A stretch of 35,857 nt of DNA from Nanobdellota archaeon (GTDB lineage: Archaea > Nanobdellota > Nanobdellia > Woesearchaeales > JAHWHD01), in assembly GCA_034722435.1 (NCBI GenBank), contig JAYENX010000023.1:6053-41909 (forward strand). Reading direction: 5' to 3'. Shown here piece after piece: positions 4,527-30,580 of this stretch (the first letter of the stretch is position 1; the number at the start of each line of letters is the position of its first letter). The translations under genes and the position numbers were made by a program. Under the pieces are notes generated by a model. The model worked only from the letters and a program-made list of their open reading frames with translations, ran no database searches and was not told the origin of the DNA.

Positions 4527-5360
4527 ATGGACAAGGAGAACAAAATTATTGTTTTTGAGCATAATAAAATTAGAAGAGTTTGGTATAATGATGAATGGCA
4601 TTTCTCAGTAATAGATGTAATTCAAATCTTAACTAATAGTAATAATCCCAGAAATTATTGGTCTATGTTGAAAAAAAGAGAAGAAGATGCAGGGATTGAA
4701 CTGTCCACAAATTGTGTACAGTTGAAATTAAAAGCACCAGATGGAAAACTAAGAGAAACAGATTGTGCCAACACAAAATCCCTATTTAGAATAATCCAAT
4801 CAATACCCTCTAAAAAAGCCGAACCTTTTAAGAAATGGCTTGCAAAGGTAGGATATGAACGTATTCAAGAGATTGAAAACCCCGAACTTGGACAAGATAG
4901 GATTAAAGAATATTATGAGCTAAAAGGTTATCCTAAAAAATGGATAGATAAAAGACTTCGCGGTATTGCAATTAGACAAGAGTTAACAGACGAATGGAGG
5001 AATAGAGATATTAAAAATAAAAAAGACTTTGCAATATTAACTAATGAAATTAGTAAGGCGACATTTGGTAAAACTATTGGTGAATACAAAGAATTTAAGC
5101 AATTACGAAATAAAAACCACAATCTACGAGACCATATGACTGATTTGGAATTAATATTTACCATGCTTGGAGAGAAGACAACTACAGAGATTACAAAAGA
5201 AAGAGATTCTCAAGGATTTGAAGAATGTAAAGAATCTGCCAAAGAAGGTGGGGAAGCTGCAAATGATGCTAGAGAAAGTGTTGAAAGACGTCTTGGAAAA
5301 TCAACAATATCTAAAGACAATTTTTTATTAAAACAGAAAAAGAAAAAAGAGATAAAATGA
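4527..5360 (+). CDS. Bro-N (BRO family, phage antirepressor-like) domain protein
   Basis: WHFSVIDVIQIL...PRNYW and FRIIQSIPSKKAEPFKKWLAKVGYERI are typical of this BRO-N protein family. Confidence 0.88.
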   Translation: MDKENKIIVFEHNKIRRVWYNDEWHFSVIDVIQILTNSNNPRNYWSMLKKREEDAGIELSTNCVQLKLKAPDGKLRETDCANTKSLFRIIQSIPSKKAEPFKKWLAKVGYERIQEIENPELGQDRIKEYYELKGYPKKWIDKRLRGIAIRQELTDEWRNRDIKNKKDFAILTNEISKATFGKTIGEYKEFKQLRNKNHNLRDHMTDLELIFTMLGEKTTTEITKERDSQGFEECKESAKEGGEAANDARESVERRLGKSTISKDNFLLKQKKKKEIK

Positions 5361-5376
5361 AATTTAATATATAAAA

Positions 5377-6048
5377 ATGGAAAAGGTTCAAACAGCAGAT
5401 GGAAGCACTACTTTTAGAAGCAATAGTGTAGACGAGACCTATCATAGTACTTCAGGTGCAAAAGAAGAATCTTTGAAAAAGTTTGTCGAACCTTGTCTTT
5501 CATTGATAAAAGAAAAAAAAGAAATTACAGTTTTAGATGTTTGTTTTGGGTTAGGATATAACACAGCTGCGTTACTAGATTCTGTTGATGAAAATGTTAA
5601 AGTAAATATTATTGCACTAGAGAATGATCCCGAGATTATATTAAAAGTTCAGGATATTGATGATAATACGTTTTCTAAATATGAAATAATAAAAGAGTTG
5701 ATTAAAGAAAATAAAGAAAAAATAAAGAAAAAAGAGACCATAAGTATAGATAAAGATAATATAAAAATAACACTCATTATCGACGATGCCAGAAAGAGTA
5801 TAACAGGGATTAGAGATAAGTTTGATTTGTGTTTCTTAGACCCTTTTTCTCCAAAAAAGTGCCCTGAATTGTGGTCATATGAGTTTCTGAATGACATCTA
5901 TGAAAAGATGAAAGATAAATCTGTTCTTACAACGTATTCTTGTGCTAGAGTGGTTAGAGATAATCTAAAAAAAGCAGGTTTCGTAGTTAGTAATGGACCC
6001 TGCGTTGGAAGAAGGGCTCCATCAACAATTGCGAGAAAAGGGAAATAA
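5377..6048 (+). CDS. MnmC/MnmD-like SAM-dependent tRNA U34 methyltransferase
   Basis: ETYHS..GA..ES; VLDVCFGLGYN (SAM motif I); LDPFSPKKCPELWS; TTYSCA. Confidence 0.85.
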   Translation: MEKVQTADGSTTFRSNSVDETYHSTSGAKEESLKKFVEPCLSLIKEKKEITVLDVCFGLGYNTAALLDSVDENVKVNIIALENDPEIILKVQDIDDNTFSKYEIIKELIKENKEKIKKKETISIDKDNIKITLIIDDARKSITGIRDKFDLCFLDPFSPKKCPELWSYEFLNDIYEKMKDKSVLTTYSCARVVRDNLKKAGFVVSNGPCVGRRAPSTIARKGK

Positions 6049-6071
6049 GCAGGTCAACTTAATTGACCTGC
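6049..6071. terminator. Perfect 9-bp hairpin immediately after the MnmC-like gene
   Basis: gcaggtcaa-cttaa-ttgacctgc; no U-run follows, so terminator function is tentative. Confidence 0.45.
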
Positions 6072-6169
6072 GATATTAGTGATTATGGCCAAAACTTGCA
6101 GATAGAAGACTTCAACCAGTTACTTTAGCCCAAAATATTTAGTCTCTGTCTTTGAATCTGATTTTTGGT

Positions 6170-6336
6170 TTTAGGCCCAACTTCTGAGCTGTGATATTAA
6201 TCGGGCACAGATTCAAGATTGAATCTGTACCCGGGAATTCACCTCTTTTTTGAGTATAAAATAAAGAACGCCGGGGACTGCAGTGTGAGGGGTGGTTTGT
6301 AGAAGTTGGGCAGTCCCTAGCTTCTTTTATCGTGAT
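6170..6336 (-). ncRNA. Candidate structured non-coding RNA (boundaries approximate; may extend to about 6049)
   Basis: BRE/TATA at 6360-6373 points into an ORF-less region. Stems: 6175-6185/6301-6311 (11 bp perfect), 6274-6281/6310-6317 (8 bp perfect), and the 6202-6233 hairpin (14 of 15 bp paired). The loop motif recurs at 30501-30524. Confidence 0.6.
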
Positions 6337-6359
6337 AACTACTAGTATAAGTAAACTAA

Positions 6360-6373
6360 TATATAAATGTTAC
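6360..6373 (-). promoter_or_regulatory. BRE-TATA promoter driving the candidate ncRNA
   Basis: Minus strand reads GTAACATTTATATA, identical to 15969-15982, which lies 24 nt before the ATG of the PhoU-like gene. Confidence 0.65.
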
Positions 6374-6553
6374 TATTTAGTATACTGGTGTACTTTATGT
6401 ATTTTTTAGTATTCTAGTTTACAATGGCTGTACACATAGAATTCTTGAGTTAGTACTGTATAGGTGACACGAGAAAATGACTTAAAAAGTTAAAAAATAG
6501 AATTGTTTTCATATAACAAAAGCAATTAGAGTAATGAAACTAATATAGTTTGA

Positions 6554-7216
6554 TTAAAGATTAAACGGCCCCATATCAGTATAAATTAGCTTTTCTTGTC
6601 TAAAATAAACCATAAATTTCACTTGAGAAGCCATTTGTCCAGATTCTGAGTGTAATTTATAAAGATCGTTGCATATTTCTTGTATATATTTTTCTTCAAA
6701 CATAGAACTTGAACCATTTTTAATTTTAGTCTCGTCAACCATCATTTCAGACCTGTTAAAAGGAGTAATACATTTGAAAGGCATCTTAGGTTGACATTCA
6801 GTTAAACCTTCTTGAGAACAAATAATAACATGGCCCTTCCCATCATTATGTTTAATAGTTGTAGCATGACCCGTATACGATATGTCATTAACATTATAAT
6901 GCTCGTGAAGAACAAATGCAATGGCATCTTCAGGAATTCCTAAATCAACCATTTCTTTGTACATTTCCGTCGCTGTTTTATTTAATAATTTAGCATAAAC
7001 TCTTAGTTCTTTAAATTCGCTTTTATCTTTCCGTAACAAAGTATTCCAAGGTTTTCTTAGATCGAAACCATTTAAAGTTAATAATCTGCGTTGAGCGTCC
7101 TTGTATAGTTTACCAACTTCTGTTTCAAGAAGAATATTGCCTTGCTGAAAAATATGTTCTGCTCTTGGTCCTCTCAAACCTGCTTCTCGTAATTGAATAA
7201 TTCCTAATAGATTCAT
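6554..7216 (-). CDS. Hypothetical protein
   Basis: 220-aa ORF with TATA-like sequence about 25 nt upstream; no family recognised. Confidence 0.6.
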   Translation of the reverse strand: MNLLGIIQLREAGLRGPRAEHIFQQGNILLETEVGKLYKDAQRRLLTLNGFDLRKPWNTLLRKDKSEFKELRVYAKLLNKTATEMYKEMVDLGIPEDAIAFVLHEHYNVNDISYTGHATTIKHNDGKGHVIICSQEGLTECQPKMPFKCITPFNRSEMMVDETKIKNGSSSMFEEKYIQEICNDLYKLHSESGQMASQVKFMVYFRQEKLIYTDMGPFNL

Positions 7217-15914: not shown

Positions 15915-16005
15915 GTCTGCAAGAGAGATATCATATATTCCTAACTGATATCAATGATATCAATCTAAGTAACATTTATATACTTCCTTACTTTTCTTCA
16001 TATTT

Positions 16006-16893
16006 ATGAAACGTAAACTTATCAAACAAGGTGGCGGAGGATTCACGTTTTACTTGCCAAAGAAATGGGCAGATAAAAGAGGACTGAAAGCAGGTGATGA
16101 AATTTCGCTCAGAGAAGTAAAAGATAGTTTGATTATTAACGGCACCGATTTAAGGAAAAAGGAAATATCATCTAAAGATGTAAACATGACAACTGCTTAC
16201 GAATTTCTTCTTGCAGCACACATAAATGGTTTTGATAAGATAACTATCAAGACTAAAGATCCTAAACTTAAAAAAGAAATAGAAAGAGTTGTTGATGGTT
16301 TTTTACTAGGTTTTGAAATAATATCTAAAGATGAAAAAGTAGTAATTGAAAATGTTGCAGAACCAACTGACAAGTTCGAGAATATAGTAAGAAGGTTATG
16401 GTTAATGATAAAAGAACTTGAAAGAAGGATTGGGTCTGAACAAATAAAAGACTTTGAGCAAGAGAAAGTAAAACTGGATAAATATGCAACTTTCTGTATG
16501 AGGACGATAATGCAAGGAAGTAAAGAGGATCATAATTTAGATATATATTGGGACGTAATAAATGCACTTTACAAACTACAGCACAGTTATGTTTACCTGT
16601 TAAGGTATAGTAATGAAGTTAAAGTATCTGAAATATTGAAAAAGCATCTTAACAAAGTACATAATAATTTCCAATCAATATACGAGATATTCTATAAAGG
16701 TTCAGTAATGGAGGCGCTTGAAATTTCAGAGTCGCTCTTTAAACAATTTAAAAACATAGATAAAGATATTGAAAAAAGTAAAGGAAAAGAGAGTGTTAAG
16801 CTGGCACATATGAAACACATAATCAGAAGTGCACACATTCTTGCAAGCGAAGTAGCTGACATGAAAATGGAAAGAAAGATTCAAGAGTTATAA
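16006..16893 (+). CDS. AbrB/SpoVT-PhoU domain regulator (archaeal phosphate-uptake regulator type)
   Basis: KRKLIKQGGG.FTFYLPKKWA...LKAGDEI AbrB-like N terminus followed by helical PhoU-like repeats. Confidence 0.8.
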   Translation: MKRKLIKQGGGGFTFYLPKKWADKRGLKAGDEISLREVKDSLIINGTDLRKKEISSKDVNMTTAYEFLLAAHINGFDKITIKTKDPKLKKEIERVVDGFLLGFEIISKDEKVVIENVAEPTDKFENIVRRLWLMIKELERRIGSEQIKDFEQEKVKLDKYATFCMRTIMQGSKEDHNLDIYWDVINALYKLQHSYVYLLRYSNEVKVSEILKKHLNKVHNNFQSIYEIFYKGSVMEALEISESLFKQFKNIDKDIEKSKGKESVKLAHMKHIIRSAHILASEVADMKMERKIQEL

Positions 16894-30482: not shown

Positions 30483-30491
30483 AAGTTCATA

Positions 30492-30545
30492 AAAGTTCTT
30501 TGCCCTTACTTCTACAACCACCCCCAATGGAAGGCAGGGAACTTT
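30492..30545 (+). other. Stem-loop in the ftsZ 3' UTR carrying the C-rich loop motif
   Basis: 15-bp stem aaagttctttgcc(c)tt / aaggcagggaacttt enclosing acttctacaaccacccccaatgg. Confidence 0.65.
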
Positions 30546-30549
30546 CATG

Positions 30550-30580
30550 CTCCAGCCTAGCTGGAGTTTTTTTCTTTTTT
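30550..30580 (+). terminator. Hairpin + oligo-T terminator of ftsZ
   Basis: ctccag-cctag-ctggag followed by a long T-rich tract. Confidence 0.7.

Follow-up and report, generated by a model that had tools for sequence, protein, structure and literature searches.

The minus strand of the window, from about position 6336 to about position 6049, very probably carries a real, conserved and uncatalogued non-coding RNA gene. The window is the whole stretch of DNA that was analysed, 35,857 nucleotides of contig C23 from a 1.3-Mb archaeal genome (G000, completeness 94.5%). The account that we favour, with a probability of about 0.5, is that an RNA gene lacking an open reading frame was derived from the transcription unit of a conserved 131-residue protein, p131, and that its RNA carries a loop of anti-Shine-Dalgarno (anti-SD) type. 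As far as sampled, the RNA family appears to be confined to one Woesearchaeota-type (DPANN) order.

The RNA lies in a 505-nt gap (6049–6553) flanked by two converging genes. A Methyltransf_30/MnmC-like gene (5377–6048) approaches the gap on the plus strand, and a 220-aa ORF with no family match (6554–7216), which follows a gene for an XPD-type helicase, approaches it on the minus strand. Two genes upstream of the RNA lies a gene for a protein with a Bro-N domain (4527–5360, plus strand), which is characteristic of viruses and mobile elements. Homologues of one protein of G000 all carry the annotation Candidatus Woesearchaeota or Nanoarchaeota. G000, G001, G002 and G015 share the converging MnmC-like neighbour, which is found in part in G041. 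Metagenome contigs carrying the neighbouring MnmC-like gene gave three distant loci, none of which contained the hairpin described below.

An earlier, sequence-only reading of this DNA had drawn attention to a BRE/TATA 14-mer on the minus strand (6360–6373), identical to the one that precedes ORF 16006 and followed by no reading frame. Both observations were confirmed. The 14-mer is repeated exactly at 15969–15982 on the plus strand, ending 24 nt before the ATG of ORF 16006–16893, and no credible ORF was found downstream of the promoter on the minus strand, the sole candidate being a 25-aa ORF with a TTG start inside a hairpin. With up to two mismatches allowed, the 14-mer occurs seven times in the window, compared with 0.9 copies expected. 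Transcription is predicted to start at 6336, 24 nt past the 14-mer; the same spacing precedes the ATG of ORF 16006 and that of the leaderless p131 gene.

When the whole window was searched against Rfam at the gathering score no match was obtained, and a search of positions 5950–6600 at E ≤ 10 returned noise only. No tRNA or tmRNA was found in the window. Identity with RNase P RNA (RF00373) or SRP RNA (RF01857) was rejected because the genome carries both RNAs on another contig, C13, with scores of 130.5 and 136.9 bits respectively. The minus strand of 6049–6340 folds at −94 kcal/mol (z = −7.15), and none of 200 shuffled sequences folded as well. The plus strand of the same region gave z = −2.9, indicating that the structure is strand-specific. 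The sequence-only reading had proposed an undescribed non-coding RNA on this strand, and the proposal is supported, with a predicted start near 6336 and no match in Rfam. Its further suggestion, that the RNA might be antisense to the 3′ end of the MnmC-like gene, was not upheld; any overlap is confined to the U-rich tail of the last hairpin.

This last hairpin, with a 10-bp stem and a U-rich tail (6049–6071, minus strand), was identified in a scan for terminator-like elements and in the fold, is kept in G001, and adjoins the stop codon of the converging MnmC-like gene. It is likely to be the 3′ end of a long form of the transcript. Preceding it on the RNA is a 3′ domain (6072–6201), which includes the 3′ arm (6175–6185) of an 11-bp helix considered below. 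The 3′ domain and the terminal hairpin are recognisable in the genus only (G001), where support is thin; the domain has short conserved blocks and two small helices in common with G001 only, and nothing more was found for it by BLASTN of 6040–6400 against 60 relatives.

Hairpin modules and their conservation

The 5′ part of the RNA is formed by module 1, a long hairpin at 6262–6330 on the minus strand, delimited by a covariance model (R1), the predicted fold and covariation. Its core is a perfect 8-bp stem (6310–6317 with 6274–6281), which in the minimum-energy fold is extended by pairing of about 6320–6330 with 6262–6272. The core stem encloses a 28-nt unpaired loop (6282–6309) containing UUCU at 6301–6304 and a C-rich core at 6286–6298. 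Folded alone, module 1 has an energy of −22.3 kcal/mol (z = −5.25), with about 20 interrupted pairs and the 28-nt loop fully open. A U-rich tract read from the sequence at 6252–6268 follows the hairpin and is probably a leaky archaeal terminator; most family members have a U-rich tail in this position. An H-type pseudoknot (6321–6325 with 6301–6305) was considered, and was dropped in favour of the extended local stem that is present in the minimum-energy fold. A 5′-flank complement like the putative pseudoknot arm was seen in four close relatives, and, on reading of the sequences, the extended local stem shows compensating changes in G001, G002 and G041.

A plain 13-mer pattern search of 300 genomes was too noisy relative to a reversed control, and the covariance model was used instead. 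Model R1 was built from 12 copies (alignment A4). It matched the window copy (6266–6321) with 48.2 bits and E = 4.9e-12, and found no other match in the genome. At E ≤ 0.01 it matched 95 of the 151 genomes searched in the order, most of them with a single match, and all 63 positive genomes in a phylum-level sample came from the same order. In 80 sense matches, 91.2% of stem cells were paired compared with 78.4% in shuffles, and 123 cells carried double changes compared with 29.5. Compensatory changes were seen in all 11 stem pairs, the score was reached by none of 500 shuffles and slid controls were far lower; fitting of the alignment to the model gives the structure some advantage. The 9-nt core of the loop was exact in 44 of 84 homologues and had no more than two mismatches in 79; it was 94% unpaired in minimum-energy folds, with UUCU about 3 nt upstream in 76. 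The window RNA thus has the covarying stem, the UUCU and C-rich loop and the U-rich tail that characterise what we call the p131-associated C-loop hairpin RNA family. A plain 3′ end resembling an intrinsic terminator was rejected as a description of module 1: although it has both a hairpin and a U-tract, its loop core hardly varies across the order.

Seven of the genomes used (G001, G002, G113, G122, G133, G208 and G210) are unpublished. The within-genus comparison and the G001 orc1 result given below depend on G001. Copies from G001 and G002 are in the A4 seed, and each of G001, G002, G122 and G133 contributes one row to alignment A7. None of the seven genomes is needed for the family-wide counts.

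Module 2 (6202–6249, minus strand) consists of an A-rich Shine-Dalgarno (SD)-like word at 6240–6249 followed by a 14-bp hairpin at 6202–6233. The word occurs no more than 150 nt behind the module 1 hairpin in 17 of 84 homologues, where 0.0125 would be expected. The 50 nt that follow it have a median folding energy of −15.6 kcal/mol, against −4.6 kcal/mol after the same word elsewhere in this genome (p = 5e-10). The module 2 hairpins of the homologues are unrelated to one another in sequence, and comparison of this genome with G001 shows compensating changes at seven of the 14 pairs. No start codon was found at a usable spacing from the word, either here or in G001. The only other element of this kind in the genome is on contig C50 (~57280–57350), 14 nt past the end of a gene. 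It has a variant of the SD-like word, a hairpin of −22.8 kcal/mol and a U-run, and is preceded by a UUCU-containing stretch resembling the loop of module 1.

The p131 promoter and hairpin arrangements

BLASTN of 6040–6400 (minus strand) against relatives delimited a conserved promoter block at 6346–6391, which was matched at 85–97% identity, at several loci each, in 60 of 60 relatives. It contains the TATA box (6360–6367), the BRE (about 6368–6373) and an upstream element with the palindrome GTATAC (6380–6385), and ends 38 nt upstream of the module 1 hairpin in the window. Copies of the block stand before the leaderless p131 gene, before ORF-less hairpin RNAs and, in one genome, before ftsZ. 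The promoter had been taken for an orphan in the sequence-only reading; it is in fact a copy of the p131 promoter block found throughout the order. The promoter of ORF 16006 has the BRE/TATA 14-mer only, without the upstream element. At the locus with ftsZ (L021, contig C22 of G047), the 5′ leader of the gene driven by the conserved promoter holds the module 2 word. A weaker block, with 6 mismatches in 30, was seen in this genome at an 87-aa PRC-barrel gene (contig C58, 37626–37889, minus strand).

The p131 gene of this genome is leaderless and encodes 131 amino acids (contig C25, 27277–27672, minus strand). The protein is 60–79% identical across families of the order and has more than 4100 homologues, all annotated as hypothetical. 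No family was found for it in Pfam or NCBIfam, Foldseek gave nothing at E ≤ 0.001, a protein atlas contained hypothetical Woesearchaeota clusters only, and a literature search found no description of p131 or of the RNA. The predicted structure is a winged helix (pLDDT 78), for which VIA-align gave generic matches (Z ≤ 7.9), mostly to DNA-binding or protein-binding domains. The protein is plausibly the factor that binds the promoter palindrome, which would put the RNA in the p131 regulon. As promoter and GTATAC element are shared with p131, the RNA should be co-regulated with it.

We surveyed the arrangement of 84 hairpins in 78 loci. Forty-one lie 0–150 nt behind the stop codon of p131, with the promoter block about 420–460 nt upstream. 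A further 34, including the window copy, have a promoter copy 28–240 nt before them and no p131 gene in the interval, and the other nine are different cases, several being second tandem copies. In 75 of the 84 cases the hairpin is thus physically linked to p131 or to the promoter block. This genome has the stand-alone form, and no hairpin was found behind its p131 gene. The simplest history suggested by these arrangements is that the RNA gene is a copy of the p131 transcription unit in which promoter and 3′ UTR were kept and the ORF was lost; the hairpin retained would be the one that serves as 3′ UTR of the p131 mRNA in most relatives.

Two C-loop hairpins in tandem behind p131 or the promoter were observed at six loci of relatives (L086, L028, L151, L171, L158 and L089). 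On contig C56 of this genome (~41792–41925, plus strand), about 6 kb from the 16S rRNA gene, a promoter-like block differing at 4 of 30 positions precedes a hairpin that lacks an ORF (−19.7 kcal/mol, z = −2.8); its features are UUCU, a CCCCUCA loop and eight consecutive U. This element looks like a diverged paralogue below detection by R1.

Loop targets and rival explanations

We propose, at slightly less than even odds, that the RNA acts by anti-SD base pairing. The C-rich loop would be a seed that pairs with ribosome-binding sites of GGGGUG type, and pairing would block translation initiation at such G-rich sites. The 3′ end of the 16S rRNA is canonical, and the loop resembles the anti-SD sequence without being identical to it; its complementarity to GGGGUG-type sites is perfect. 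The 16-nt loop was scanned for duplexes against 1253 gene starts, taken from crude gene calls. The best duplex was at the ribosome-binding site of orc1/cdc6 (contig C28, leader at bases 224–241), where 13 of 13 bases pair (−23.8 kcal/mol) and complementarity ends 4 nt before the ATG. A lipoprotein gene (−20.0 kcal/mol) and an HPPK-like gene (−19.4 kcal/mol) came next, ftsZ was eleventh, and the median was −4.3 kcal/mol. Of 150 shuffled loops, one reached −23.8 kcal/mol anywhere in the genome. In this genome orc1/cdc6 would be the prime candidate target; ftsZ and a few dozen other genes that have G-rich sites are weaker ones. Expression as a discrete transcript is suggested by the conserved promoter and the terminator-like ends. 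Two 3′ ends are likely, each used by part of the transcripts, one at the U-tract that follows module 1 (~85 nt) and the other at the terminal hairpin (~290 nt).

Leader-bearing orc1 genes of two relatives also pair well with their own loops, at −20.1 kcal/mol in G132 and −16.4 kcal/mol in G108. In G132 the loop has CCCCCC opposite GGGGGG, where this genome has CCCCUC opposite GAGGGG. Pairing is weak in G001, G020, G026, G027 and G041; in G001, of the same genus, the match is down to 6 + 3 bp (−12.8 kcal/mol). Moreover, orc1 lacks a leader in about 30 of the 40 relatives, and the G-rich boxes located ~60 nt upstream of it are the G-strings of origin-recognition boxes (a dyad, then a G-string) and not ribosome-binding sites. 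Therefore orc1 cannot be the conserved target of the family, and was rejected as such. Pairing of the loop in cis with the p131 mRNA was also rejected, as no strong or positionally meaningful site was found.

Upstream of orc1/cdc6 in this genome (contig C28, ~130–240) there is a canonical origin-recognition box with a dyad and a GGGGT G-string, and an element resembling a mini-origin-recognition box lies between the TATA box of the gene and its start codon. The layout is alike in about 40 relatives, and probably marks a replication origin.

Further points tell against the anti-SD account. The invariance of the loop makes intermolecular covariation hardly testable, the association with p131 is equally compatible with a protein-binding role, and the account does not cover module 2, with its perfect SD-like word and no start codon. 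In a protein-binding role the loop, and perhaps the SD-like word, would be recognised by p131 or another protein, so that the RNA might be a partner in a ribonucleoprotein, a decoy or an autoregulatory site. Such a role would suit the association with the p131 gene or promoter (75 of 84), a loop conserved as sequence, as protein sites often are, the strong conservation of p131 as a winged-helix protein with its more than 4100 homologues, and the lack of a cis target of the loop in the p131 mRNA. We nevertheless consider it rather unlikely, because the structural matches of p131 are to generic winged helices (Z ≤ 7.9), mostly DNA- or protein-binding domains, the promoter palindrome points to DNA binding, and shuffled loops are less complementary to G-rich ribosome-binding sites than the actual loop. 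The hairpin could alternatively be a cis element at the 3′ end of the p131 transcript, serving as terminator or stability hairpin, with the stand-alone copy a remnant, without function in trans, of a duplicated p131 gene whose ORF was lost. Promoter and hairpin without an ORF are, however, kept in 30 loci from many families, and a terminator needs no loop core that is near-invariant throughout an order; U-tracts alone are sufficient for termination in archaea. These points make the cis element improbable, although a hairpin with a U-rich tail is the norm for the family, 41 of 84 copies lie 0–150 nt behind p131, and the p131 gene of this genome has no such hairpin behind it.

Internal rearrangement of the RNA was also considered. 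The sequence-only reading had described a perfect 11-bp helix (6175–6185 with 6301–6311) that competes with the 8-bp helix of module 1 (6274–6281 with 6310–6317), together with the long hairpin at 6202–6233. All three were found as described, the last as the 14-bp stem of module 2 in the minimum-energy fold, with its compensated pairs in G001. From the first two it had concluded that the RNA has two mutually exclusive folds and might be a switch, in which the long-range and local helices alternate to change RNA activity; this we regard as most improbable. Both helices are indeed perfect and have bases 6310–6311 in common, an 11-bp perfect match within ~290 nt has an estimated chance of roughly 0.01, and the 3′ arm is a near-copy of a segment 5′ of the hairpin. 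However, the minimum-energy fold (−94.0 kcal/mol) contains the 8-bp helix, and forcing the 11-bp helix raises the energy by 10 kcal/mol, to −83.9 kcal/mol. The local hairpin also forms first in transcription. On reading of the alignment, the 11-bp helix has at best a weak 6-bp AU counterpart in G001, which is not convincing, whereas the extended local stem covaries. There is no conserved core like that of a ligand-binding RNA and no regulated gene downstream, the next gene converging on the RNA. The 11-bp helix is possibly lineage-specific, and we do not take it as evidence of a switch.

Starting from the anti-SD account, a wider scheme can be imagined in which the C-loop hairpin RNAs (the window gene, the C56 paralogue and a hairpin at the 3′ end of ftsZ) and p131 together make up a cell-cycle circuit based on RNA in these reduced archaea. 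Pairing of the loops would be with the G-rich leaders of orc1/cdc6 and of ftsZ or, more radically, with the GGGGTGG G-strings of the origin-recognition boxes beside orc1. This scheme is speculative and we give it little credence; if it were true, replication initiation and division would be coupled to p131 expression.

Comparison with known systems

Several regulators of Firmicutes and Actinobacteria, among them RNAs of the RsaE/RNAIII type, the icaR 3′-UTR motif and 6C RNA, have unpaired C-rich hairpin loops complementary to G-rich SD sequences. The window RNA resembles them in having an unpaired C-rich loop complementary to G-rich SD sites and, as for icaR, in the location of the family in a 3′ UTR. 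They are bacterial, however, and unrelated to it in sequence. Pairing of a 3′ UTR with its own 5′ UTR, as in icaR, does not fit here because the p131 mRNA has no cis target. In enterobacteria, small RNAs derived from 3′ UTRs (CpxQ, DapZ and SroC) combine a regulatory hairpin and a terminator, located where an mRNA ends, and are able to act as separate RNAs. The family shares with these the hairpin and terminator-like end behind an mRNA. It differs in that the C-loop module also stands as a gene of its own under a duplicate of the parental promoter, and processing from the p131 mRNA is hypothetical.

A comparable element is found in the window itself, at the 3′ end of ftsZ (30488–30560), where a stem-loop behind the gene has UUCU, then a C-rich loop core, then a U-rich tail, as in module 1. 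We assign it to a sister family and not to the family itself, because R1 does not match it even at E ≤ 1 in this genome and because its stem and host gene are different.

Among archaeal RNAs, sRNA41 of Methanosarcina mazei is an intergenic small RNA that masks ribosome-binding sites (PMC5867862). Like sRNA41, the window RNA is archaeal and non-coding, lies between genes and has a promoter of its own; its proposed mode of action is to occlude ribosome-binding sites by means of a complementary stretch. The two have no sequence relation and come from different lineages. Unlike sRNA41, the window RNA belongs to a family that also occurs as 3′ UTR behind one particular protein gene, shares the promoter of that gene and has a second, SD-like module.

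A literature search found no described regulatory RNA family in DPANN archaea. The DPANN archaea considered here are uncultured and have tiny genomes with few recognisable regulators. In most sampled genomes of the order, the analysis defines an RNA family with a promoter, a structure, a seed-like loop and a partner protein gene, and it singles out p131 and the GTATAC-bearing promoter as a conserved regulatory unit. The replication initiator is a testable candidate target of the RNA in this genome. The locus would also illustrate the birth of a small RNA gene in which the promoter and 3′ UTR of a protein gene were kept and its ORF was lost.
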